DNA of 64,000 nucleotides from Lytechinus pictus (Eukaryota). The stretch spans positions 3,164,001 to 3,228,000 of the forward strand of contig NC_087245.1 of NCBI RefSeq assembly GCF_037042905.1, written 5' to 3'. The notes below the pieces were generated by a model. The model ran no database searches. It had not been told where the DNA came from and was given only the letters and a program-made list of their open reading frames with translations. The stretch's first letter is position 1; the number at the start of each line of letters is the position of its first letter. Shown piece by piece: positions 7,424 through 61,479 of this stretch. The translations under genes were made by a program, and so were the position numbers.

Positions 7424-8310
7424 TCTATACTGCAAAGGTATTGGGTTGTTCTTTTACCTTATCGACAGTTAAACACTATTTTAAGTGGTTTTCAAGCTAT
7501 CTAATCAGTCTGTATAGTACTCACCTAATATCAAATATCATGAAGGAAAAAAAGGTTCCATCCAATATCAGCTGCAAATCAAAAGAACGACATTGTAGGA
7601 AAAATTAAAAATACCATCTAAACCCAGACTATAGATGTGGTATCTGGGTGCTGTAACGATGGTGTGGGTGTGGGATAGGTTCAATGATAGATGTGGTATC
7701 TGGGTGCTGTAATGATGGTGTAGGTGTGGGTGAGGTTCAATCATAGATGTGGGATCTCAGTGATGTAATGATGATGTGCGTGTGGGTGAGGCTCAATGAT
7801 AGATGTTGTATCTGGGTGTTGTAATGATGGTGTGGACTGTGGGTGAGGTTAAATGATAGATGTGATCTATACTGCAAAGGTATTGGGTTGTTCTTTTACC
7901 TTATCGACAGTTAAACACTATTTTAAGTGGTTTTCAAGCTATCTAATCAGTCTGTATAGTACTCACCTAATATCAAATATCATGAAGGAAAAAAAGGTTC
8001 CATCCAATATCAGCTGCAAATCAAAAGAACGACATTGTAGGGAAAATTAAAAATACCATCTAAACCCAGACTATAGATGTGGTATCTGGGTGCTGTAACG
8101 ATGGTGTGGGTGTGGGTGTGGGTATGGGTGAGGTTCAATGATAGATGTGGTATCTGGGTGCTGTAATGATGGTGTAGGTGTGGATGAGGTTCAATCATAG
8201 ATGTGGGATCTCAGTGATGTAATGATGATGTGCGTGTGGGTGAGGCTCAATGATAGATGTTGTATCTGGGTGTTGTAATGATGGTGTGGACTGTGGGTGA
8301 GGTTAAATGA
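7424..8310. repeat. Direct tandem duplication of ~442 bp covering unique flank plus the first minisatellite units
   Basis: The ~208-bp segment TCTATACTGCAAAGG...AAACCCAGACTATAG occurs nearly identically at 7424 and 7866, each followed by the same variant repeat units. Confidence 0.95.
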
Positions 8311-10487
8311 TAGATGTGGTATCTGGGTGTTGTAATGATGGTGTGGTTGTGGGTGAGCTTAAATGATAGATGTGGTACCTGGGTGCTGTAATGATGGTGT
8401 GGGTGAGGTTCAATGATAGATGTGGTATCTGGGTGCTGTAATGATGGTGTGGGTGTGGGTGAGGTTCAATGATGGATGTGGTATCTGGGTGCTGTAATGA
8501 TGGTGTGTGGGTGAGGGTCAATGACAGATGTGGTATCTGGGTGCTGAAATGATGGTGTGGGTGAGGTTAAATGACAGGTGTGATATCTGGGTGCTGTAAT
8601 GATGGTGTGGGTGTGGGTGATGTAAAATGATAGATGTGGTATCTGGGTGCTGTAATGATGGTGTGAGTGTGGGTTAGGTTCAATGATGAATGTGGTATTT
8701 GGGTGCTGTAATGATGGTGTGAGTGTGGGTGAGGTTCTATGATAGATGTGGTATCTGGGTGCTGTAATGATGGTGTGAGTGTGGGTGAGGTTCTATGATA
8801 GATGTGGGATCTCAGTGATGTAATGATGATGTGCGTGTGGGTGAGGCTCAATGATATATGTTGTATCTGGGTGTTGTAATGATGGTGTGGTTGTGGGTGA
8901 GCTTAAATGATAGATGTGGTACATGGGTGCTGTAATGATGGTGTGGGTGAGGTTCAATGATAGATGTGGTATATGGGTGCTGTAATGATGGTGTGGGTGT
9001 GGGTGAGGTTCAATGATGGATGTGGTATCTGGGTGCTGTAATGATGGTGTGTGGGTGAGGGTCAATGACAGATGTGGTATCTGGGTGCTGAAATGATGGT
9101 GTGGGTGAGGTTAAATGACAGGTGTGATATCTGGGTGCTGTAATGATGGTGTGGGTGTGGGTGATGTAAAATGATAGATGTGGTATCTGGGTGCTGTAAT
9201 GATGGTGTGAGTGTGGGTTAGGTTCAATGACAGATGTGGTATCTGGGTGCTGTAATGATGGTGTGAGTGTGGGTGAGGTTAAATGATAGATGTGGTATCT
9301 GGGTGTTGTAATGATGGTGTGGTTGTGGGTGAGCTTAAATGATAGATGTGGTACCTGGGTGCTGTAATGATGGTGTGGGTGAGGTTCAATGATAGATGTG
9401 GTATCTGGGTGCTGTAATGATGGTGTGGGTGTGGGTGAGGTTCAATGATGGATGTGGTATCTGGGTGCTGTAATGATGGTGTGTGGGTGAGGGTCAATGA
9501 CAGATGTGGTATCTGGGTGCTGAAATGATGGTGTGGGTGAGGTTAAATGACAGGTGTGATATATGGGTGCTGTAATGATGGTGTGGGTGTGGGTGATGTA
9601 AAATGATAGATGTGGTATCTGGGTGCTGTAATGATGGTGTGAGTGTGGGTTAGGTTCAATGATGAATGTGGTATCTGGGTGCTGTAATGATGGTGTGAGT
9701 GTGGGTGAGGTTCTATGATAGATGTGGTATCTGGGTGCTGTAATGATGGTGTGAGTGTGGGTGAGGTTCTATGATAGATGTGGGATCTCAGTGATGTAAT
9801 GATGATGTGCGTGTGGGTGAGGCTCAATGATATATGTTGTATCTGGGTGTTGTAATGATGGTGTGGTTGTGGGTGAGCTTAAATGATAGATGTGGTACAT
9901 GGGTGCTGTAATGATGGTGTGGGTGAGGTTCAATGATAGATGTGGTATATGGGTGCTGTAATGATGGTGTGGGTGTGGGTGAGGGTCAATGACAGATGTG
10001 GTATCTGGGTGCTGAAATGATGGTGTGGGTGAGGTTAAATGACAGGTGTGATATCTGGGTGCTGTAATGATGGTGTGGGTGTGGGTGATGTAAAATGATA
10101 GATGTGGTTATTGGGTGCTGTAATGATGGTGTGAGTGTGGGTTAGGTTCAATGACAGATGTGGTATCTGGGTGCTGTAATGATGGTGTGAGTGTGGGTGA
10201 GGTTCTATGATAGATGTGGTATCTGGGTGCTGTAATGATGATGTGAGTGTGGGTGAGGCTCTATGATAGATGTGGTATCTGGGTGCTGTAATGATGATGT
10301 GGGTGTGGGTGAGGCTCTATGATAGATGTGGTATCTGGGTGCTGTAATGATGATGTGGGTGTGGGTTAGGTTCAATGATGGATGTGGTATCTGGGTGCTG
10401 TAATGATGGTGTGGGTGAGGTTCAATGATTTGATTGGGTATATTGGTGCTGTAATGATGGTGTGTGGGAGAGGTTCAATGATAGATG
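7630..10487. repeat. GT-rich minisatellite, unit ~50-56 bp (ATGATAGATGTGGTATCTGGGTGCTGTAATGATGGTGTGGGTGTGGGTGAGGTTCA)
   Basis: Roughly 45-50 tandem units are visible. Identical or near-identical minus-strand ORFs 976 bp apart show higher-order repetition. Confidence 0.97.
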
Positions 10488-13360: not shown

Positions 13361-13368
13361 GGCGAGTC

Positions 13369-13402
13369 CACTGAACTGGAAATACGTATTTCCAGTTCAG
13401 TG
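13369..13402. mobile_element. 34-bp perfect palindrome with 8-bp direct flanking repeat
   Basis: GGCGAGTC|CACTGAACTGGAAATACGTATTTCCAGTTCAGTG|GGCGAGTC. Confidence 0.7.
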
Positions 13403-15542
13403 GGCGAGTCACGTGATGGGACGGCGCTGGCACTAATCCGCGTTCCGTGTGCCTCGGGAAAGATAGGTCAGTCAGCGCGGCGCGGTAGCCTATCTTAATT
13501 TTGGTTCAGATTAAAAAAGATGAACTGCGAGTATAATAACTAGATTATCGAGATCTATTGATCCAACTTATTAAAAGTAGGATGTAAAACAAATATACCA
13601 GGCCTTTATTTCGACAGTATAGAGGGAATTATTCATCCTTGGTTTTACTGGCAAAATTACTGTTTTTTCCTCGGGGCTTCGCCCCTCGTGTAAACTAGTA
13701 ATGCCAGTCAAACTTCCCGACAATTAATTCTCGCTATACTTCCTCAGAGCCTGATATTTATATAATATGTAGACTCTGATGGTTGAAAGGCTAGCATTTA
13801 TGACAATGTAGAAGTGATGGTACAATTAAATAATGACCGAAAGTTGTTTTGAAGATAGTGATCAAGTAAAAGTGTTTATCTTTGATCATGTAACAAAAAA
13901 TATATATATCAAACCAAGGATTCACCTTCTATTTTATTGCTTTGTTAACTTTATGAGCCTATTTGATTAAATTATTGTATGATTGTTCACCTGATTAGAA
14001 CGATACCAGAGACATTTTACTTCACAATCTGATAATTAATATAGAAATGTATATAAACCAACTCAAACGAAATATCCTTCGTTGAAATGAAACTACCCCC
14101 TTTTTTAAGGTCCCGTTTGAACCTGAATCATGATTTGAATGTGGATGCAAAATTCACAGATCTGTGACAAGGAATTATAAGATCAATTCCGGTTGCTCTA
14201 TACAGTATAGCAGCAGGTGATAAGGCGTTTACCGAACGGAAACAAGCTTTACACCTCAGCCACCAATCCTCATCACATCTGTATCCTCACACACTTCCTC
14301 CTTTTAAGATGTGAATGATTTTGAAAATAGATTGAATGAAATTGTTTATGATCTAGAATTAAGTGAGGCAAATCATAAAACTATCATTGATTTCTTTTTC
14401 TTCCAACAGGTAGTTAAAATATAATAAAAAATGAAGAGGGATGTTGACCGTATAGGGAACAGGCCTCACATGTTATTGGATTCTAAATAAATAAAAGAAT
14501 AATGAACAAAAGTTTGATGATGCATATAAGAAAATAAATGCCTATATTACATCAGTTAACGATCATATATTTTAAACATTAAATGAATGTTCCACTCTAA
14601 AATAATGAAGTTCTGATCATTAAGTGCTAAATTAGCATTTCATTTTTAGAGTGTAAATAGAGTGTATGGATTGTATCTTAAACTCAAATGACTTGCTATT
14701 TTTTCATGCCTCACAAGGCAAAAATTGTGGCTGACTCCTCCCCCAATATCCCAACTGTTGACAGTGCTATCGCGACAATAATCGGTCTGCAAGTTACTCC
14801 CAACGTTGTTTACAAAATTGTATACTTCATGATTTCAAAATGTCATATTATATACCCTTTTTATCATATGAATATTAAGTATGATGCGAATATTTAGGAA
14901 ATGTATAACATTCTACCATGTTTTTTTCTTCTATCTAATAATAGGTACAATATTTGTACGACTTTTAATTCTAAAAATATTCTGTAATCTGCCATTCCGT
15001 GAACCGTGAATTGATTACTTGATTTTTTTTATTATTAAACATGAGACCCAACATATAGTAACTGACAAATAAGTAATACTAGTAGTAAAATTGGTCATTG
15101 GTCAAGTACCAAGAAGTATAATCAATACTATTACAAAATATAAATATTTGACCTAACGTGCAGGAGAATGAGTATTGAGCAGTCGTTAGACCAAATTGAT
15201 ATTCGTCTAAAGTAAAGTAAGCTAGTCTGAAAAGAGGACAAAGTTGGTGAATGTGTCGTTGCAGTTCCAAAATAGTGTCCTTAGCAGATGGATATATTAC
15301 TTGAACTAGTTAGTCTGATTTTGGACAATGTCTCCTTAGAATCATCCATTCACATGGGATTTCCCGGAGGCCTGACTAGTCATCCAGGATAGTATAAACA
15401 CAACTTAGTAAACCAGGGGAGTCTCTTTAAATGGTCGCCAACTCTAGATCTACATGTTCTTGAGATACCGTCATTAGAATACATCGATGTTATTAGGGCT
15501 TTCATTCTCAGATATTTTCATTTTCATGTCTTTCCTTTTTAG

Positions 15543-40257: not shown

Positions 40258-40302
<45 letters not shown>

Positions 40303-40396
40303 GTGTAAAGTTATACATGTACAACAGCTTTGGCAACTCTTTTTATTTAAATATTGTAAAGAAATGGATGAAGAGAACAATATATATATATATATA

Positions 40397-41049: not shown

Positions 41050-41080
41050 ATCATATAAACATATATATATATATATATAT

Positions 41081-41251
41081 ATATTGTAAAGAAATGGATG
41101 AAGAGAACAATGGTAGGCGTAGCTTAAATCAAGGTTCCCCAGAGCTGTCTACCCTTTGGAAGGTCTACCCTTCCAAAGGGTAGACAGCTCTGGGGAACCT
41201 TGATTTAAGCTACGCCTACCATTGTTCTCTTCATCCATTTCTTTACAATAT
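41081..41251. repeat. Perfect hairpin with 83-bp arms and a 5-nt spacer
   Basis: 41081-41163 is the exact reverse complement of 41169-41251. The right side continues to ~41300 as an inverted match to 40303-40380. Confidence 0.95.
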
Positions 41252-41512
41252 TTAAATAAAAGAGTTGTCAAAGCTGTTGTACATGTATAGCTTTACAAAT
41301 ATATATATATATATATACAGAATTTTTACACTATATCTGTGTATTCAATTTTAGGCTATCGATTCTGCGGCGCTCTATTTCGTTTTCTATCTCATATCTT
41401 CCCCCTCTCTCACCCTTTCTTATATCTTTCTCCTTTTCTCCTTATAATACTCCCCTTCTCACTGGATAATTTACCACTAACTTGATATCTATTGTTTGAT
41501 TTGTTTTGCTAG

Positions 41513-45050: not shown

Positions 45051-45069
45051 GTATGTATATCCACTTTAA

Positions 45070-45674
45070 AGGACAAGTCCACCCCAACAAAAAGTTGATT
45101 TGAATAAAAAAAAGGAAAAAAATCCGATAAACACAACACTGAAAATTTCATCTAAATCGGATGAAAAATAAGAAAGTTATGACATTTTAAAGTTTCGCTT
45201 AATTTCACAAACAGTTATGCACATCCTGATCGGTATGCAAATGAGGAGACTGTTGATGTCATGCACTCACTGTTTCTTTTATATTTTATTATATGAAATA
45301 TAAAATATTCTAATTTTCTCGTCATTGTCTAGTGAAACAACGATTAATCCCTCCCTGAACATGTTGAATTTGCATTGTTTAATACCATAAATTTTTTATG
45401 GTTCACTCAACTTGGTACTTACTGTCAAGTATGTAAAGAATGAAATGTTGTATAATTCAAACAATAAAAAACAAAAGAAATGGTGAGTGATGGACATCAT
45501 CGACTGACTCATTTGCATGACACTGAGTTGTGCATATCACTGAAAAAACAAGCGAAATTTCATAATGCCATAACTTTCTTATTTTACATCCGATTTTGAT
45601 GAAATTTTCAGCGTTATACTAGTTTGATTTTTCTCTATTCATTTAAATCAACATTTTCTGTGGTCGACTTGACC
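45070..45674. mobile_element. Kolobok-like TTAA MITE, second family
   Basis: TTAA|AGGACAAGTCCACC ... GGTCGACTTGACC|TTAA with ~200-bp imperfect TIRs. Confidence 0.85.
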
Positions 45675-46917
45675 TTAAATGATACTAATACACGTATAAC
45701 AATTATAACCTGCTATTTACAATTCAAGATGGAAGTCTTCAGCCTCGTTCAGACATGAGATCCAAGTCGGAGTAAAATTTTGTTGTGCATTGATTAAAAT
45801 TCCAAAGATATTTCTCTTATCCCCACCAGGACAAAGGCTGCTTTGATAGGAGGAAGTGTCAGAGGAAGCCCAGTCGGAGGAAATGTCGGAGTAGTGCCCG
45901 TCTAAACAGATTTACTCTGACCTTTCTCCGACCAAGATACTTTTACTGATTTCCAAGAGTATCTTGACCGGAAAAATTAGTGGTAAGGTTTGGTTTCCCA
46001 GAGGAGATTTTTTTTCCTATTTTTATCCCTTTTTATAAATTTGCGTACTCTACTAACACTTCTTTTAGACACTGTTAGACCACTTCTTACTCCCAGGATG
46101 CTGCCAAATGGAATGTGTTCAATGAAAGTATCTGATAAGGGAAAGACACCATATATTTTGGTCAGTTAGATCATTATGGCCTCGGTGTCGACTTGTATTC
46201 ATGATGAAACAATGTCACGTAGCGGGTAAAATTTATCATCATTCTCTATAGAAAGATAAATATTCCGTGACAAAAGTCATATTTACATATTCAATATTTA
46301 ATGCAATATTTGCAGACATAACATTTTTGTTTTCAATATGACACTATCGAGAATAAGACCAAACGTACCACCATTTTTATTTTACTTTACAAGCGAGCGA
46401 CTATACATTCCTTGTTACGATTAAATTGCTGAGATAATGAAAGCTTTTGCTTATTTGTAATGCTGCATTTTTAGAAATTTGCATTCTTAAAAATTCCGGA
46501 TCAGGTCATTTCGACCCTGTCGGTGTCTCATCTGGCGTCATTTCGGGTTATTGTATGACCCAAACAAACTGAATCCCAGGTTAAATATGATCCGGTATTA
46601 TATAGAATGACTTATACAAGAAAGCTGAGCGACTAGGGAGGAACATCATGTTTATATTAAATTGAAAAAAAAAACATGAAACCATTTATTGCCGTCTATA
46701 TTGGCCTATCAATTTTTATGATATACCGGCACATTTCATCGTCAATTATCTTCCTTTATCATTTATGATGTTGGTCAATGATATAGGCTTAGCCTTTAGT
46801 TTGTCAAACATAATTTTCCGCTGCAAAAGAAATGATATGCTAAATCGGCCGAACCATAATTATCAGCTGTAATATACTGATATTTTATGCTGCAATTTCC
46901 ATTCATTTTCCTTACAG

Positions 46918-47079
46918 ACCATGATCCATTTAACATGTACCTTGGCGAGACGGACGTTTTCTGGGATTTCTGCCATGACCTGAATGGAACAAGATGCCTT
47001 CATGAAAGTGTCTGTTTTTTCTCACATCAAGAATGTGATAGATATACAGCGTGTCCAAACCACCATGATGAGTGGTTCT
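46918..47079 (+). CDS. Exon 7, linker plus atypical LDLa repeat 5 (DHDPFNMYLGETDVFWDFCHDLNGTRCLHESVCFFSHQECDRYTACPNHHDEWF)
   Basis: Strong acceptor TTTTCCTTACAG, 162-nt phase 1-1 exon, donor T|GTAAGT. The sixth Cys codon is completed by splicing (T+GT). Confidence 0.85.
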
Positions 47080-47786
47080 GTAAGTAGAGATGCCTACTGT
47101 AGAATAATAACCGAGAACATATATACTTATATCTAACTTTCATTGGTGCTGAACAAAAGATTCAAACATTTAATAATTCGGAAACTATCCGAGATCTCGC
47201 TATTTCTTTCTAGACGGTTTTGTAGCATTCTTCATGTTCTTGTTGATAACTCTTTATTTAACTAATTCAGTAGCGTAGACCATGACCCCGAGATATTGAA
47301 AAAAAAGAACAAGTTCAATATTTTGCTATTATTTGGGGGAATCTGTAGGAGGTTTGAAAGTTAGATTGGCATTAGACACTGCAAAAATATTGGTTAAAAA
47401 AATTATGTTACCAATGTCAGATGTCTGCGCTCATTGGAAGGAAAATTCGGTCGAAGGTTGTGCTTTTAATACACATATAGTGAAAACAATGACCAATTGC
47501 TTGTCAAGACACTAACAGATAATCAAAAGTTTGACCAATAGTTGAATAAAATATAGAGTTTCACAATTTTCTAAATTATGATTTACATTTATGATTAAAT
47601 AATGCTAATGATAATAAGTCATAAACAGATTTCTTGCGATCAAAGAATGTGACATCACTTTAAAAAGAAAAGTAATTGCCCTTGAGGGAAGAAATTAGGG
47701 TTTCTGGTATGCAAAGAAAACTCGATATTTTATAGATAGGCTTCTTTATTTCATATTACGAATTTCTTCATTATATTCTATTACAG

Positions 47787-47914
47787 GTTGTCCTGAGGGT
47801 CAAGTGCGGTGTAAAACAGTAGACAAGTGCTATTCTATATTTGGTATGTGCAATGGTGAATACGACTGTCCCGATCAAAGCGATGAAGAATGTGACTTTG
47901 GGGATTATTTATAG
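47787..47914 (+). CDS. Exon 8, LDLa repeat 6 and probable stop (CCPEGQVRCKTVDKCYSIFGMCNGEYDCPDQSDEECDFGDYL*)
   Basis: Acceptor TTACAG, LDLa consensus, in-frame TAG TAA at 47912-47917. The ORF track shows only a wrong frame here. The 3' boundary is uncertain because the stop overlaps a GTAAGA donor. Confidence 0.88.
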
Positions 47915-49601
47915 TAAGAAGTCGGATAGTGTATTCAGCCCTCTCCCGTCTATCAGTGACCAATCAGTTTTACATCACATTACGGTATATCAGCAAGTTC
48001 TGCTTCATATCAGGGAGGAGTGATTGCATGGAAGTTCTTATGTTCCAATAATTCCAGGGAATGCCTCATATTTATTTTAAAGATTTAATTATATTTCAAC
48101 CAGTCAACAGTATCTGCAAATATTCTCGAAAACAAATTTTAAGCGTGACATTGGTTCAAATGCATGTGCATTGATCTTTTGTAATATTTTTTTTCAGGAT
48201 GTATTTTTTTTCTTTCTCTAAACTCTCGGGCTAATTATGTGAAGTTATATTACTATCTTACACTCCCTTATCTTTGTAAGGAAAAGGAATTGAGGACAGT
48301 GACAATATTTCCCTTCAACCCTCGCTTTCCATTGAAAAGAGATCGATTCTATGTAACATGCATGCATAAGCCAACATGAGTCCTTCCTCATACCACGACA
48401 CCAAATTTTTGGATGTATGTTTTACGCTGTTCTATATTACTTTTCACTAACTCATTTCACACTTACCCTGACCGTTTTCTTATATCGGTGCCGGATGAGC
48501 ACACTTTCGTTTGATGAATAAAGATCAAAATATATTTAATTTATTGGAAAAAAATAAATCGAGAGAATGTTTACATGATATCAGAAGTTTTGTATAATTA
48601 TATGTGAGAGCTAAATAATTGATCGCACTATTAATTCGAACAAAAACGCTCAAAATGTTGGTCGAAGATAAGCCATCTTGGATTTTGGACATACTCAACC
48701 ACTGACTGTCATTGTTACCTGTCTCAATGTATTACTTGACTCTTGAATCATATTCCTCAAGCGTAAAATAAATGAACTATGTCGGTTTTTAAGTAGTAGC
48801 AGCCATTTTATACTCCATTTTTACTCAAACCTTGGGCATTAATTTTTATTATTTTTTTAATTCTATTTTTTGCAATAACCTTTTTTGTCAGGCTGAACCT
48901 CCCCTTTAAACGCCATCTTGAAAATAACCGCTTTTTCCTGACGTGGATTTTGATAGTATGATTTTTAGGATGTTTTTCCTGGGGTCAAATACTACAGAAT
49001 CAGTTGAAAAAAAAAAACCTTCTGTTGCAATTTGTGTGGAGTAAAACCATAATTGACCCGACAAGAACCGAATGCGTCCCATATCATTACCCTCTTCAAA
49101 ATTCAGAAAAAAAATATTTATAGTTGTGCGCCATCTTTTGACGACTTCAAAATAGTAATGATATACAACATAAAAAGAGATAACAATTTGATAATAATTT
49201 ACAGCGCATCAATATACATTTATGGAGGCGATATCAAGAAATTATGAATACACAAATTTAGAAGTGGAATTTACAAAAATATGAAAGAACAATTTTTTCA
49301 GGTTTCCATTGATATCTTACATGTGCCTCTAACAGTACGCATAACTCAACTAATGGAAATCTTTTGTCGAAGTTATGGCAGGTATCATTTTCACCCAGTT
49401 GAGTCATTGCTTTCTTACTGAGTATAAAGACTTCAAAGGCTGTGTTATTGAAGGCACTGTGAAAATGTTGCTTCTTCTGACGGACTGATAAGGTTCCATG
49501 CATTTTAACCTTTTAAGCCGGAACAAATTTTGGGGAAAAGAGTCTTTACATGTAGCCTATCAAATCAATAATTCATTCAGCCATGGGTTGTGTCTATTAT
49601 G

Positions 49602-52600
49602 TATGAGGCGCCGAATGTACCAATATTATATAGAACAATTATTTGTTATATAATCATTATTTATTAAATAATAACTATTATTTATATATAATTTACATTT
49701 TATTTGTAAATAACTACTATTATATAAAATATCATTTCTAATTATTTATATATAATTCCAAGTAATACTTCATTATTTGTAAATAATAATAGTTCGACAT
49801 TCCATTATTTATAAATAATGATTATTTGTTTTTCATTATTTATAAATAATGATTATTTGTTTTTCATTATTTATAAATAATGATTATTTGTTTTTCATTA
49901 TTTACAAATAATGATTATTTGTTTTTCATTATTTATAAATAATGATTATTTGTTTTTCATTATTTATAAATAATGATTATTTGTTTTTCATTATTTACAA
50001 ATAATGATTATTTGTTTTTCATTATTTATAAATAATGATTATTTGTTTTTCATTATTTATAAATAATGATAATTGGTTTTTCATTATTTATAAATAATGA
50101 TTATTTGTTTTTCATTATTTACAAATAATGATTATTTGTTTTTCATTATTTATAAATAATGATTATTTGTTTTTCATTATTTATAAATAATTTGTTGAGT
50201 TTTCCATTATTTATAAATAATGATTATTTGTTAAATAATGAAAACGTCTACTTCATTATTTATAAATAATTTTTTCGAGTGCACCATTATTCTCATTATT
50301 TATAAATAATCATTATTTAATGTTCGAGTTTTCCATTATTTATAAATAAAGATTATTTGTTAAATAATGAAATATCTACTTCATTATTTATAAATAATAA
50401 TTTTGTTTCAATATCCCATTAATCATTATTTATAAACAATTTTTACAGTTTGCCATTATATACAAATAATCATTATTTATATACAAATAACCATTATTTA
50501 TTAAATAATGCCATTATTTATTAAATAATGCCATTATTTATTAAATAATGCCATTATTTATTAAATAATGCCATTATTTATTAAATAATGGAAAACTCGC
50601 TATAACATGCAAATGTGGGACCGCCCATGATATGAATATTCATGATGCGATTTCCTTTTTCGTGATTTTTCTTCACAAATTTTTGTCCATTTCCTCTTCA
50701 TAATGACATTTCTTGAAGCAATTTTCTAGGGATATGGTCTGATTGTAATATTCTTCATTTTCTATATAACTTCGTCTTCGTAGAAATATCAAAAAGTGTA
50801 ATTTTATACGATTTTTCCTACAGTTCACAATCCCCATAGGCGCGCGTGTACGGTAGGGACAACCGGTGAATCGACGGAGTGCTCTTCATCGAAATACTAC
50901 GTTGGTTGGTCCCCGGAAGTGGCGGGCGGAATTTAGCCCGAATCCTCGATGGAAGTCGATCAAGTGCATATGAGCTGAGAGAGTGAAATATCAGTGTACT
51001 TGTACAGGCCCTTCTACTTTTTATAAATATTTCTTGTTGCTTTTTTTGTTAAGTTAATTTTTCCTGGTGTAGAGATAAGTTTCAGTTCTAATAGTGCACT
51101 TCAAATACATTTTGGAGTGTCTGTTTGAGGCGTTTGGGGCGATTTCACCCTGGCCCCAAAATGCTCGCAACGACAATACGGGGGCATGATGACCCCTAAA
51201 TTTTTAAAAACTTATTTTTCTATTGAAAATTATCTCAAAATTCACCAAAAGTGTGCACGAAAGCCTTCGTATTTCACTTTTAAAACTCCAAAAAGTGCCC
51301 AAATGACAAGCTTGGTCGCTTCGCTGTGTCGCATTCAACTTGAGAACGTTTACGCGTCTGCTTCGATATATCCCCCCCCCCCCCCCCCCCCCCCTCCTCC
51401 GAAAGAAATTCTGTATACGGCCATGCTCTAAAGAGCCTGGCACATTGATTTATGTATACTTTCATTTTCATTATTTTTATCTCATTATCAACATGGCCTT
51501 ACGCATAATTTTTTTCCAGGGGGGCCGGGGCCGGAGCATGACGCGCGTAAACTTTCTCAAAAAAATCTTGAAAGCGAGACAGCCACGGGACCAAGCCCAA
51601 ATGACAAGCTTGGTCGCTTCGCTGTCTCGCTTTCAACTTGAGAACGTTTACGCGCGTCTGCCCCCACCCCCCGAAAGAAATTCTGTGAACGGCCATGCTC
51701 AAAAGAGCATATGGCACATTGATTTATATGTACTTTTCATTTTCATTATTTTTATCACATTATCATCATGGCCTTACACAGAATTTTTACCGGGGGGGGG
51801 GGGGAGCAGCTAGGACGCGCGTAAAGTTTCTCAAAAAAATCTTGAAAGCGAGACAGCGACGCGACCAAGCTCAAATGACAAGCTTGGTCGCTTCGCTTTT
51901 TCAAGATTTTTATGAGAAAGTTTACGCGCGTCCTGCTCCCCCCACCCCCCCCCCCCGGAAAAAATTCTGCGTAAGGCCATGATGATAATGAGATAAAAAT
52001 AATGAAAATGAAGTATACATAAATCAATGTGCCAGGCTCTTTAGAGCATGGCCGTATACAGAATTTCTTTCGGAGGAGGGGGGGGGGGATATATCGAAGC
52101 AGACGCGTAAACGTTCTCAAGTTGAATGCGACACCGCGAAGCGACCAAGCTTGTCATTTGGGCACTTTTTGGAGTTTTAAAAGTGAAATACGAAGGCTTT
52201 CGTGCACACTTTTGGTGAATTTTGAGATAATTTTCAATAGAAAAATAAGTTTTTAAAAATTTAGGGGTCATCATGCCCCCGTATTGTCGTTGCGAGCATT
52301 TTGGGGCCAGGGTGAAATCGCCCCAAACGCCTCAAACAGACACTCCAAAATGTATTTGAAGTGCACTATTAGAACTGAAACTTATCTCTACACCTGGAAA
52401 AATTAACTTAACAAAAAAAGCAACAAGAAATATTTATAAAAAGTAGAAGGGCCTGTACAAGTACACTGATATTTCACTCTCTCAGCTCATATGCACTTGA
52501 TCGACTTCCATCGAGGATTCGGGCTAAATTCCGCCCGCCACTTCCGGGGACCAACCAACGTAGTATTTCGATGAAGAGCACTCCGTCGATTCACCGGTTG

Positions 52601-53838
52601 TCCCTACCGTACACGCGCGCCTATGGGGATTGTGAACTGTAGGAAAAATCGTATAAAATTACACTTTTTGATATTTCTACGAAGACGAAGTTATATAGAA
52701 AATGAAGAATATTACAATCAGACCATATCCCTAGAAAATTGCTTCAAGAAATGTCATTATGAAGAGGAAATGGACAAAAATTTGTGAAGAAAAATCACGA
52801 AAAAGGAAATCGCATCATGAATATTCATATCATGGGCGGTCCCACATTTGCATGTTATAGCGAGTTTTCCATTATTTAATAAATAATGGCATTATTTAAT
52901 AAATAATGGCATTATTTAATAAATAATGGCATTATTTAATAAATAATGGTTATTTGTATATAAATAATGATTATTTGTATATAATGGCAAACTGTAAAAA
53001 TTGTTTATAAATAATGATTAATGGGATATTGAAACAAAATTATTATTTATAAATAATGAAGTAGATATTTCATTATTTAACAAATAATCTTTATTTATAA
53101 ATAATGGAAAACTCGAACATTAAATAATGATTATTTATAAATAATGAGAATAATGGTGCACTCGAAAAAATTATTTATAAATAATGAAGTAGACGTTTTC
53201 ATTATTTAACAAATAATCATTATTTATAAATAATGGAAAACTCAACAAATTATTTATAAATAATGAAAAACAAATAATCATTATTTATAAATAATGAAAA
53301 ACAAATAATCATTATTTGTAAATAATGAAAAACAAATAATCATTATTTATAAATAATGAAAAACCAATTATCATTATTTATAAATAATGAAAAACAAATA
53401 ATCATTATTTATAAATAATGAAAAACAAATAATCATTATTTGTAAATAATGAAAAACAAATAATCATTATTTATAAATAATGAAAAACAAATAATCATTA
53501 TTTATAAATAATGAAAAACAAATAATCATTATTTGTAAATAATGAAAAACAAATAATCATTATTTATAAATAATGAAAAACAAATAATCATTATTTATAA
53601 ATAATGAAAAACAAATAATCATTATTTATAAATAATGGAATGTCGAACTATTATTATTTACAAATAATGAAGTATTACTTGGAATTATATATAAATAATT
53701 AGAAATGATATTTTATATAATAGTAGTTATTTACAAATAAAATGTAAATTATATATAAATAATAGTTATTATTTAATAAATAATGATTATATAACAAATA
53801 ATTGTTCTATATAATATTGGTACATTCGGCGCCTCATA
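49602..53838. mobile_element. 4.24-kb fold-back non-autonomous DNA transposon with IS3EU-like ends
   Basis: Termini TATGAGGCGCC...GGCGCCTCATA, 6-bp TSD ATTATG at 49596-49601 and 53839-53844. Arms 49602-~51573 and ~51898-53838 are near-identical inverted copies. Confidence 0.92.
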
Positions 53839-53999
53839 ATTATGGGCAAAGATTCGCTCTTTCATATTCTTTAATCTCTATACAACATAGTGACGATAAT
53901 AAAGAGGATGATACTGTTACGACTATTACTAGAAATTGCCCACTACTAATTTACGACGACGGCTATGATGATGACGATCATCATCATTGCCATCATTAT

Positions 54000-54292: not shown

Positions 54293-54667
54293 GGAGCGTC
54301 TTAGCCCAGTGGATTATTCTCCGGACTTTGAAACAGAGGGTCGTGGGTTCAAATCCCAGCCATGGCGTAGTTTCCTTCAGCAAGGAATTAATCCCCGGTG
54401 TGCTGCACTCGACACTGCACAGGTGAGGTAAATGGGTACCGGCAGGAAATAATTCCTCAAAAAGCTGTGTGCACCTGAATCGGTAGCCCAGCTTAGGGTA
54501 ATAATAATAGTAGGGCCCGCTGGGAGAACAGTTTTAGGAACTGAAGTGGCCAGCCTGGGTAAATATACCGTTATTATTATTATCATTATTATGATGATTA
54601 TTATTACTACTACTACTACTACTACTACTACTACCCTTACTTCAACTACTATAATACTACTACTTCA

Positions 54668-55782: not shown

Positions 55783-58504
55783 CATATATATATATATATA
55801 TATGTCGATCGTGGAGCTAAAAGTAGTAGGCCTATGTCATTTGGTTAATGAGAAAGCTTTGTAAAGGTGCATTTTAAAATGTCAAATGCTTAAACAATGA
55901 CATCAAAACACTTTCCTAAGACATAAAAGACCTTTTACAAATCTCATACATTACTATTACATACTTATACATTGCTTTATCTGTATCACCATGCTCACAC
56001 CATTAACCCGTTGAGTACTGAATTCTGTCATTCCATGCAGTATATTAAACAGGGATCAGCTACTCCCAGAAGGCAATAGGTTAAGTCACATTGTTTGATT
56101 TGGTTCAGTTTATTGTCTGTACGATGATTAGCTTAATGATACTGAAGCTTATTCAGCATTCAAACTTAATTATTTTAACTTGTTAACATTTTGTTGTTGG
56201 TTGATAATTATTACAATTGACATTAAACGAGTTCTTTGAAATATATTAGCATTATTAATTATATGCAGACATATAATGGTGGAAATTGACGTTATGAGAT
56301 CAAAAAAACCTTGTGATTATCAGAAACATTCTTCATATGTTATATTACTTTACCTCAAATTATTGAGTGTATATTTCTGTGTACCTATGTTATGATATCA
56401 GGGTGATGTATTCCATATTGCATTAATTTGTGAGAGATAAATAAAAGCTATCCTTGGATATCTATTCAATGCCAACGACTGTCATCTTCTTTTATCAAAA
56501 TATTGTTAAATGAATTAATAAAATGACTGACAAAATAACACGTAATGGTTACGCATGCCTGAAATCAATATAAATTGTATAAACCTTAGTAAAATTAAGG
56601 AAGCAAAACGCAGAAATTTAATTGAAATGTGAAAGAAAAGCACAGTTGTTGCATTCTTCAAAATTTGCATTATTTAGGGGGAACTGTAAGCATATACATT
56701 AGCCATTCATTTAGTCATTGCCCACTTGAGCCTCTCAATGCAGTCCATATATCTATAATATAATTTCTTAAATACTATTTCATAAGCTCGTTCACTGCAC
56801 AATATCCATACAAATGCCTCATCTAAATAATATAGAACTTAAATATCCCAACTGTATCATAAATTTCTTCTGATTTCGTAAATTTGTCCATATTGCTTGT
56901 TTAATTGTACTACAATTTTGTTAAAATCACAGTAATTTTTGACCAGAGAACTACTTTGAATAGAATATGAAAATTTCGCCTGAATTCATTGACTACTAAA
57001 TAACATGGTCACTATTTCTGTTCAAAAGATTAATTTTGAATATATTATTTTTCCTGTTCCAGATGGGTAATATCGCAAGACAAGATATCCATCAGTCTAC
57101 CTATTAATTAAGCACTTTGCTGTCAAAAATCCGTTTTATACAAACTAAACAAAATTTCCGATTCCGATTTAACCCGAAAATCAGACCTTTGACATTTCAG
57201 TCCGTTCAAGATCAATATATTTTTTTAGAGAATTTTGGCATGTGAATAAGAAATCACTCCTGTGGCCTGGCAATTTCTAGCGTTACAATAGGCTAGATAT
57301 AATTCATTTTAGATCAATTACAATTTCACCCAGATTGGTAGTTACATGTGTATGAAAATCTAATCGAAATCAGTGGTAAGTTAATGATGTTGATTTTTTT
57401 CATAGTATACATCAATTTTTCTCCCATGGTATCCAAACTGCATGGCACTTTTAAATCTGTGGTCAATTTTTTCCCACGGATGTAGATTCCGGCTTTATCG
57501 TTATTGAATAAACAAGATCATGAAAGACGAAAGAAAATACAGAATTGACATTTAAGATGTGCTTTGAATAAACGTGAATGTGGATATCCTAACTCTGGAA
57601 TTGCAGAAAGGGAAGTCCCTGCACAAATGCATTATGTATCAGTGCTCATCATCCTTAAAATGGAATCTGTTTCCATGGTAATGCTTACTGACTGAAACAC
57701 CAGAGTCCAATAAGGTACCTACTAATATACCCCCAGAGGCCAATGAATATCTGTATATGGAACCTAAACAGGGGGAAGGAGAATAAAAGTAGGTTGGAGA
57801 GCTGACTATAAGTTTTCAAAGATTCAGTTAATGAAAGGTGAGAAATTAAAAGAATAGTGAGATTTATGAAATGATTGATTTGCGTCAATGGTGGTGACGA
57901 TGATGATAAGGATAAAGATGATGCTGATGAAGATAACAATGGTTATGGTGATGATGCTGATTATAACTTCAGTGATGATGATGGTGATGATGATAACAAT
58001 GGTTAAGTTGATGATGATGATAATGATGATGTTCATGATTATGTTGATGATTGGATAAGACATCCAAGTTATCTTTTTTTTTATAATAAACTAAAGAAGG
58101 TGCTTTTATCATTTTTTAATGCATCTGGATATATATTAACAAAATATTAACACAATCTTTAATTTTGGCAGAATTGATTGCTGATTCTATTACGGAAGCG
58201 TTAAAAGACCCCACTTCCCCTGGCAAAAAGCAATATCTACGAAACAATTATATGTAATTGTCCTGAAATCGTTTATTATAGCAGAAGATAAAGGAGACAT
58301 GTGTTAGATGACTGCAATCTATTTGGGAATTATGATTGATTTATTGATTTACACAGATAGCAATATATGACTGTAAATACCATTCCACTGCTTATGTATG
58401 AAATTTGACGCCATGGATCCGGCTTGTTATGGTAAAGCAGGATAATAATAACACCATGACCTATTTACTACCAGTGTGTATGATGGTGCGAATAATTCGA
58501 TTAA

Positions 58505-59069
58505 AGGAAAATGAAACCTTTGGAACAAGATAGCTTGTGTGAAAACAGAAAAATCAAAGAAACAGATCAACAAGTTTGAGTAGAATTGAATGAACAATAT
58601 GTTATGAGCATTTGAAGTTTAGATCATTATTGTAATGTAGATCCTCCTATTGGCAATGCGACAAAGATGTGTGATATCACATGTGAACAACTTTCCCACT
58701 GCTTTTGTATATATTTCACTTAAAATGCCTCTTTTATCAGATCATTAATTCTTTCTATAGGAGGGCTTGTAATACAGATTTTCAAAGAATATATTATGGA
58801 TGAAGAGAGTGTATCACCATAAGAACGAGCAAAAGATACATTTTGGGGGTATTTTTATAGTCCATCAAAGGTAAAGTTGTTCACCTGTGACATCACACAT
58901 ATCTGTCGCATTGCCAATGAGAGGATCTCCATAGCATTAGTGATCGCAATATTCAAATGCTCATAACTTTCTTATTATTTGTCCGATTTTTCTCAGACTT
59001 TCTTTTATCTTAATCTTTGATTTGTCTCTTTCCACACAAGCCAAATTATTTCAAGGGTTTCATTCCCAT
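58505..59069. mobile_element. Complete Kolobok-like TTAA MITE
   Basis: TTAA at 58501-58504 and 59070-59073, long imperfect TIRs, same family as 12544-13105 in the opposite orientation. Confidence 0.88.
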
Positions 59070-61479
59070 TTAAAGATTTGAGAACATTATTAAGAGTGAA
59101 ATATAAATTTTCCTGCTTTCATTCTTCTGTTAAATGTACAAATAAAAGCGAAATTACCTTGACCCGGCCAATTTGCGTCTTATTTCGTCCATGGATCTAC
59201 TACAACGGCTTCGGCTACGCACAATATTTCTTGGGTCTTGACCACTACTGGTAAAAATGAGAATGAGCAAGTATATAGTTTAATTTTTCCTTTGCTTTTT
59301 TATTCACATTTCTCAGGCACATTGCACCCTAGTTTGTTTATGTGTAGCAGTGAAGACACAGTGATGCTACATCGTAGGCAGCCAGGCACTCCACAACATC
59401 ATATTCTGCACAAGTGGTGTAGATATGGGTCTTCATATCTGACAAATCGGCAAACTTCAAGTTATATATGTGTGTGGAGTGATGTGTCCGTGAAGGTGGG
59501 ATGAGGTTGTGTATGTACGGTATATATTTACATATATAATAACGTATAAATGAATATGAAATAGGCCTATATGGGTGTGTGTAAAGACATAATAGATAAA
59601 ACACTTTTAGAATTTCATAACAGGGCATACATGGCAAATTTTGACCTTTTCAAATCTCAATTTGTGATAGATTTTGACACTCAGAAAATGATATCATGTT
59701 TCACGTACTATTTCTTGCTTTCCTTTATTATCTAGTACTTGGTTGCGGAAATTTGTATTTACAAGGGAATATTAAGACTCAAAATTAATAACTCCGTAAA
59801 AGAATAAAGAATTATGTAAATTTATATGCCCTTTTTCCGCTTCCAAAATTATATATACAAGACAAATTTTCAAACCCATCATGAAATAATAAAAGGAACC
59901 CATCCTGTTTTTTAAGAGATAGAGAGAGAGACAGAGAGATGTTGAAGTGTGACAATGTGGCGAAATTTCAGTGTATAAAGGTCATAAAAATGAAAAAGAA
60001 ATCCTCTTCCAGAAAAGGGGGAAAAAGAGAGCAGAATAGAGTAATGCAATTTGAAGCTTGATAAAACCTTGTTAACTGTGTGGCATTGCCATACTGCTTT
60101 CCAATTCAATTTGTAGGCCCACGTAATGTCAATGCTTACGAACGACTGGTAGTTTTGCCCGTCGTTACCATGGATACGGCAACGTAAACAAATAGTTCAA
60201 ATTGAAATCCGAGTCCCTTGTCTAGCAGTGTACTGATATATTCGTGTTGTCAAAGGATAATGTTTAATCGTGATTATAAACACTTTTGACATATTTGATT
60301 AAGGTTTTATCATATTTTTGGATAAAAATTATATCCGTATATTTTATTTAATTTTCGGTTTGAGAACTAATTTCGTAGCCAATTGTGACGCATTATATCC
60401 ATATAATCAGTGGCATACCTGGCATATTTCGTCAGGGGGGGGGGGCAAGCGACAAGGATGAGCAAGGTCAGAAGGTGGGGGGGGGGGGGTAGTAGGCATG
60501 GACGTAGAGGCATACTTTTTCGAGGGGAGGTTATAATCATTGCCCAAATATCAACTTCAGTTTTTTATTTTCGAGCGAGCGAACATTTTTTCAATTATTA
60601 TTTAGCCTTCTTACATGATATGAAACTTGCAGAAATTATACATTCGGTCACAAAATTACCAATACACGAGGATATTTGGGCACCTCGCAGTCCTCGTTCC
60701 CTGCATTTTGCAGCCCACCCCCCTCCCATACACGTTTGGATGTGTAGGTCTTGAAGTGGCACTGGAGGTGGGAAAGGTTACTCATGGGTGCCCAATAAAA
60801 ACAGTTGGGATCTTGCTACTACTGATATTTGCTATCGGGCGATTGTACTTTATTGTCGAAATTAATTCTTTTTTTGTATATCATTCCAGAAATGAAATGT
60901 ATTGGATCGTGATCGATATATTTCTAATCAAGTGGTAATTGCAATGTTTATATTGAAATACGTCTTTTGTTCTTCTTTGAAGGTGTTGTATTCTTGTATT
61001 GATTCGAATTTGTTTTATTTCCATGTACACAATTAAAACAAAAAATAAATGCATCCATTCACTCATAAAAAATAAATATGAACGTGAAAATATATGCGAC
61101 AGTAACATGATATATCACTAGACATGGGGAAAATCACTCACTCACTGACAGGAATGTTAGAAGGTTGAGGGAATTGAAATTGGAAAAGATAGATTAGCGG
61201 ACGAAAGGATCGGGTACATAGGGTAGAAAGGGGGATGGTAATAACCAGAGGAATGTGTCAGCAGGGGTAATGCTACTTTGCTAGGCCTTTAGCGACAGAT
61301 TTCAGTACCGATTACTGACGTCCGACGACCAATACTCATCTATATCCAACCCAGGGGCAGATCCAGGATTTTCAAGGGGACAGTTTGTTTACAAAAAAAT
61401 GACAAGCTCCACCCCCAAAAAGTCTTCACTTTCACTTGCAAGTGCCTAACAATTTACACTAAGATTATATACAAATAAT

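Follow-up and report, generated by a model that had tools for sequence, protein, structure and literature searches.

Is the 4.2-kb inverted repeat at positions 49602-53838 of the window (the whole 64-kb stretch of DNA analysed) a mobile element or a fold-back produced by assembly, and how did its two arms come to be almost identical? The first-pass annotation had described a 4.2-kb fold-back with near-identical arms and an exact 6-bp target-site duplication (TSD), and the coordinates that it gave proved to be exact. The element is 4,237 bp long, starts with TATGAGGCGCCGAATG and ends with CATTCGGCGCCTCATA, the reverse complement of that start; its termini read TATGAG..CTCATA. The hexamer ATTATG abuts it on the left (49596..49601, forward strand) and on the right (53839..53844, forward strand). 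Among 17 symmetric boundary shifts compared, a 6-bp direct repeat is found at this boundary only (shift +2 leaves a TA repeat, and at shift -1 the repeat is 4 bp long), and a match of the ATTATG hexamer at a fixed place is expected by chance at about 7e-4.

Four public sequencing runs were mapped on 46800-49765, which takes in the left flank and the first 164 bp of the element. One of them, X9, is DNA of a related organism (organism B); the other three are from organism A and comprise transcript contigs (X1) and RNA reads (X21 and X22). Loose ends before 49602 were seen in 26 of 77 reads of X21 (agreement 0.56), 11 of 64 reads of X22 (0.59), and 7 of 219 contigs of X9 (0.51), the low agreement being as expected for many different flanks. 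Because other copies contribute reads that break off at 49602 and have mixed flanks, the sequence belongs to a multi-copy family, which confirms that 49602-53838 is a real transposable element rather than a lone assembly fold-back. In X9, depth reaches 3,573 at 49639 versus 33-40 in the flanks, a ratio of 89-109 that is no measure of copy number; for the size of the family we go only as far as tens of copies. None of the mapped RNA reads of X21 (77) and X22 (64), counts that include reads on another repeat, is 99% alike. Reads from other copies diverge after 49638, 49677, or 49742, and divergence after either of the first two places implies that truncated or related members exist. The terminal contigs of organism B carry about 8-10 differences per 110 nt, and the terminus family occurs in two organisms. 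At the orthologous site, a flank contig of organism B (1,981 nt) stops aligning at 49584 and its remaining 307 nt do not fit the element; this site therefore appears to be empty in organism B. In one X1 contig of 2,045 nt, the terminus is represented by a piece of just 70 bp (49608-49677), flanked left and right by unrelated sequence, and X22 reads break at the same two places; we read this piece as a solo or miniature end.

Within the 64-kb window there are no further copies: blastn outside the element gave no match, and the terminus pattern with up to three mismatches matched three times, two of these being the element's own ends. Scans for the terminal pattern returned nothing from viral contigs and nothing from genome contigs. 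Metagenome contigs yielded two loci, L001 (6001-6019) and L002 (835-854), which we dismissed as chance matches, as they cover 19-20 bp only, have no second end, and lie in gene-dense, prokaryote-like sequence. The window holds several other repeats of its own. Two diverged inverted-repeat elements of about 600 bp (45066-45679 and 58501-59073) start with TTAAAGG and end with CCTTAAA and CATTTAA, and we take them to be possible TTAA-target MITEs. A small fold-back at 41074-41258 has 90-bp arms that are 98% complementary and 5 nt apart, and one of its arms recurs about 800 bp upstream (40284-40381). A 36-bp perfect palindrome (13368-13403) is flanked by a direct repeat of 6-8 bp (GCGAGT / GGCGAGTC), and a 56-bp satellite (7631-10487) with about 44 copies in its main array is strongly strand-skewed, with a GC skew of up to 0.76. 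Finally, a stretch of about 280 bp with a tRNA-like start (54293-54570) interrupts a TAC microsatellite; it looks SINE-like by eye and has no ARAGORN match.

The element consists of a left arm of 1,972 bp (49602..51573, forward strand), a loop of 325 bp, and a right arm of 1,940 bp (51899..53838, reverse strand), which is shorter than the left by one 20-bp unit and 12 C. Each arm is made up of a terminal segment of about 50 bp, an outer array domain, and an inner domain of 700 bp. In the left arm, the terminal segment (49602..49650), which starts with TATGAGGCGCCGAATGTACC, is common to other family copies. The outer repeat domain (49651..50590) has 13% GC and contains a 31-bp array of 15 copies (49769-50232) and a 20-bp array (50451-50590). 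Both arrays have the perfect 18-bp dyad CATTATTTATAAATAATG as their building block; 20 of 20 exact copies of this dyad in the window, together with all 55 loose plus-strand copies, fall inside the element, and we regard the dyad arrays as putative secondary transposase-binding sites. The inner domain (50591..51296) is non-repetitive, has 38% GC, and is not depleted of CpG (observed/expected 1.12 versus 0.77 for the window). It carries words that we take to be octamer-, ETS-, and GC-box-like motifs. The absence of coding capacity reported earlier agrees with our searches, in which the four longest frames of the element had no Pfam match at the curated cut-off. Across the whole window, a scan for IS3EU-like protein motifs gave seven loose one- or two-mismatch matches, none convincing and none in the element, and searches for Rfam families and for tRNAs (ARAGORN) gave no match.

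The two arms mirror each other closely, but not evenly along their length. As the earlier description had it, they match down to variant repeat units (all 12 of the 31-bp units tested, variant ones among them, have an exact mirror counterpart), and the outer 1.8 kb differs by a few single-nucleotide changes, one 20-bp unit, and the length of a poly-C tract. As far as 51459, arm identity is 99.89%, with two substitutions in 1,826 aligned columns (at 51065/52395 and 51325/52135); the 20-bp unit at 50491-50510 is present in the left arm only, and the poly-C tract differs by 12 bp. Assembly polishing might have exaggerated the likeness of the outer arms, and partial homogenisation of this kind is possible. 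Over the full arms there are 13 substitutions in 1,939 columns: the same two out to 51490, and then 11 in the next 82 columns, which form a diverged innermost segment (51491..51573 on the forward strand). With the boundary set at 51460, the contrast is 2 of 1,826 versus 11 of 112 columns (Fisher P 1e-12, for a boundary picked after inspection). The diverged segment holds a G-run, where alignment is uncertain and mutation is fast.

The centre of the palindrome consists only of three self-complementary units of about 275-300 bp. Two of them, U1 (51297..51594) and U2 (51595..51868), run forward, U2 forming most of the loop, and the third, U3 (51869..52158), is reversed except for its first 29 bp or so. 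Each unit is an imperfect hairpin (the DNA fold of U2 has -81.1 kcal/mol, z -12.35). Polarity switches at the U2/U3 junction (51855..51897), where a hairpin with a 17-bp stem (16 pairs) and a 9-nt loop folds at -18.7 kcal/mol (z -6.4). Because the centre holds nothing but U units, the element is the sequence of one end (arm A plus unit U) followed by its mirror image, in the order A-U1-U2-reverse(U3)-reverse(A). We considered whether the U units are nested MITEs with their own TSDs and rejected this, as the same 9-nt spacer joins the units at each junction. A comparison of U1 with reversed U3 gives one difference in 58 columns and none in a further 101 as far as 51490, and then 11 in 82. Over 51491-51573, U1 has nine private differences, U2 seven, and U3 two; these diagnostic sites interleave, for which reason we rejected a simple U1/U2 crossover as the origin of the centre. 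The inner half of U3 differs from U1 and U2 at 11 and 9 of 82 columns, respectively. A wholly recent fold-back would have copied U1 or U2 throughout U3; thus, the simplest reading of the identity step is that the palindrome centre is old and that the outer 1.89 kb or so of the arms was re-templated recently. The first-pass annotation had left a choice between a very young insertion and arms kept homogeneous by conversion. The 11 substitutions in the innermost 82 columns, set beside two in the outer arm, speak for homogenisation rather than for a palindrome that is young as a whole; the insertion itself may still be young.

Taken as a whole, the locus is probably a foldback cut-and-paste transposon mobilised in the IS3EU/GingerRoot manner, with an old palindrome centre and recently re-templated outer arms. 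A DDE transposase of the IS3EU/GingerRoot type would act in trans, recognise the TATGAG ends, and cut the target with a 6-bp stagger, and the dyad arrays might serve it as extra binding sites; in the excerpted text of PMC3573991, the tandem repeats of Galileo are stated to be secondary transposase-binding sites. The palindrome would have arisen at the hairpin between two self-complementary U units, either through fold-back priming or through an internal deletion that used the same short homology (the junction would be identical in both cases); short inverted repeats prime fold-back in yeast and mammalian cells, according to excerpts from PMC7999016. The outer 1.89 kb of one arm would later have been re-templated from the other arm or from a sister copy, much as TIR extension by end copying is proposed for Galileo (PMC3573991, in part). 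The insertion lies about 330 bp beyond the last base of the neighbouring gene for which transcription was seen. The 325-bp loop and the diverged core, itself hairpin-rich, may lessen the instability of the palindrome, since spacers lower palindrome recombinogenicity (PMC7999016, same excerpts).

The near-identity of the outer arms has another conceivable source, namely one recent event in which a fold-back, or recombination of one copy with another, brought paralogous U units together, with no recurrent homogenisation. Such a single templating event explains arms that are 99.9% identical as well as repeated conversion does, and one copy cannot separate the two. However, after a single recent fold-back U3 should match U1 or U2 in its inner half, where it differs from both, and the terminus family occurs in two organisms; we hold this account to be rather unlikely. 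The ends, too, can be parsed differently: the true termini could be TGAGGC..GCCTCA with a TA target duplication, as in a Tc1/mariner-like element of another superfamily, the outer hexamer then being due to chance. The +2 shift does give a TA duplication, and the loose ends at 49602 fit a terminal TA and an invariant TA target alike. On the other hand, under this parse the 6-bp direct repeat beyond the TA would have to be fortuitous (about 7e-4), and TG..CA ends are atypical of Tc1/mariner, which leaves it improbable.

The preferred reading of a mobile foldback with re-templated arms must also be set against an artefact, either a fold-back chimera or arms collapsed by consensus. Among the listed pieces, none spans even 46800-49765, as an artefact would allow. 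Against it, an exact TSD is followed by a return to unique sequence, substitutions, a 20-bp unit, and the length of the poly-C tract distinguish the arms, the centre is asymmetric, and reads and contigs from three runs bear out the terminus; we give the artefact almost no credence.

To which class does this foldback transposon belong? By its end features, it is provisionally a non-autonomous member of IS3EU/GingerRoot among the TIR transposons. The first-pass annotation had pointed to this superfamily, and its TA..TA ends and the 6-bp TSD of the copy at 49602-53838 do match the IS3EU/GingerRoot signature as worded in the portions drawn on from PMC10045372 and PMC6839031. Terminal inverted repeats are a further likeness. 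Fungal IS3EU elements (TET+ families) end in TAYGG..CCRTA, in the excerpt of PMC12730594, whereas the element has TATGA..TCATA, the motif being stated for fungal families only. GingerRoot of Selaginella has TIRs of 100-150 bp (PMC6839031, in part) versus arms of 1,972 and 1,940 bp here, a length difference to be read with the remark in part of PMC3573991 that TIR length is unreliable for classification. Unlike GingerRoot, moreover, the element has no transposase, and its arms of about 1.95 kb are internally repetitive and fill nearly all of it; its target is AT-rich, in contrast to the GC-rich bias of GingerRoot in Selaginella. Polinton/Maverick elements have AG-starting termini and Ginger2/TDD elements TG..CA termini with adjacent TSDs (PMC6839031, again in part), whereas the element has TA ends that its 6-bp repeat abuts, 4.2 kb of length, and no ORF; Polinton/Maverick elements also carry polymerase and integrase genes.

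In structure the element is a foldback, with long TIRs, an outer tandem-repeat domain plus an inner domain, and no coding sequence. Sea urchins reportedly harbour foldbacks of their own, the TU elements that Lieberman is said to have described in 1983. Like Drosophila FB, Tetris (PMC4079207), and Tm1 (PMC3169594), whose long modular TIRs and 8-10-bp TSDs are taken from extracts of these papers, the element has an outer array and an inner domain, unequal repeat numbers between its arms, and no ORF. Unlike them, it has an inner-arm unit in its middle instead of a separate middle domain, and its longest flanking direct repeat over the 17 boundaries is 6 bp, not the 8-10 bp of Mutator-type foldbacks. 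Galileo, of the P superfamily, has a 7-bp TSD and TIRs of up to about 1.26 kb, and in its non-autonomous two-TIR copies the TIRs are 98-100% identical within a copy (excerpts of PMC3573991). Its derivatives resemble our element in having two long arms only and, so far as those excerpts describe it, in the lengthening of one arm with a copy of the opposite end; the element differs in its 6-bp TSD and its arms of about 1.95 kb. Among the literature matches listed, none describes a foldback-shaped IS3EU/GingerRoot member, Repbase and most subscription papers lying outside the scope of that search, so that such a family may already have been described.

The neighbouring gene bears on what the element could do. 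A multi-exon LDLa/EGF gene lies on the forward strand at 15550-47914; at least four LDL-receptor class A exons and one EGF exon pass the Pfam cut-off (five of seven exon frames, with 47789-47911 just below and 46920-47078 without a match). A transcript contig of organism A, identical to the window sequence, splices from 47079 to 47787 (GT..AG) and then runs on unspliced as far as 48387, and further pieces reach 49274. The terminal exon (LDLa-like, stop at 47912-47914) and its 3'UTR thus span 47787..49274 on the forward strand as seen, outside the element. The intron to 59317 entertained earlier is not supported, because this spliced contig runs through the 47787 exon and its stop into the 3'UTR, and we rejected an intronic location of the element; the frame at 59319-59501 has no Pfam match at the curated cut-off. 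No splice joint leaving the 47787 exon was seen among the transcript contigs, which drop rare forms, and 49275-49571 has no RNA depth in any of the three organism-A runs (X1, X21, and X22), of which X21 and X22, with about 6 in 100 of each run read and zero depth at the host exons, are silent on gene structure. We therefore place the element beyond the terminal exon, about 330 bp downstream of the last transcribed base seen (49274); a minor isoform reaching past that exon is possible. ATTAAA/AATAAA words in the left arm, at 49663 and 50345, might terminate a transcript of the gene there. The 3'UTR itself contains repeat pieces (48670-48960), with an X9 depth of 25,490 in the bin 48780-48878.

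RNA from other copies, not from the locus 49602-53838, shows a skew in its mismatches. Of the 73 changed places in X21, 52 are A>G or T>C, and of the 46 in X22, 32 are; the corresponding figure for the DNA run X9 is 59 of 203. For changes from A or T, transitions and transversions number 52:9 and 32:7 in the two RNA runs versus 59:67 in the DNA run, an excess with P 3e-7 (X21) and 9e-5 (X22) for places that are not independent. The comparison uses DNA from another organism (B), mostly flank, and the counts pool the terminus with the repeat at 48670-48960, so that the skew is not localised. This excess is suggestive of ADAR editing of self-folding repeat RNA and lends the double-stranded-RNA idea of the first-pass annotation indirect support at the level of the family. 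Hyper-editing is reported in the purple sea urchin, and palindromic Harbinger repeats of Xenopus, about 200 bp long, are ADAR substrates with editing shown (both from excerpts of PMC5625713). Like those palindromes, the element is a self-folding DNA-transposon repeat able to form double-stranded RNA without a neighbour; unlike them, it offers an unlocalised mismatch skew.

Foldbacks are known, in sea urchins too, as are the extension of Galileo TIRs and the editing of palindromic transposons by ADAR, so that the ingredients of our account are not new. We also entertain, as a very unlikely extension of it, a one-ended, wholly palindromic IS3EU family with recurrent arm repair, in which an edited or diced hairpin RNA of about 1.9 kb brakes the family's own transposase. 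Mu killer is the model for such a hairpin-RNA brake on a transposase. If this were true, the read-through hairpin RNA would include the promoter-like inner domain of the parent element. IS3EU/GingerRoot is thinly described, and a foldback-shaped member would add a variant to it. The step from 99.9% to about 87% arm identity is probably the end of a conversion tract, and a family of tens of copies is a natural set for measuring arm-to-arm homogenisation and hairpin-RNA editing.
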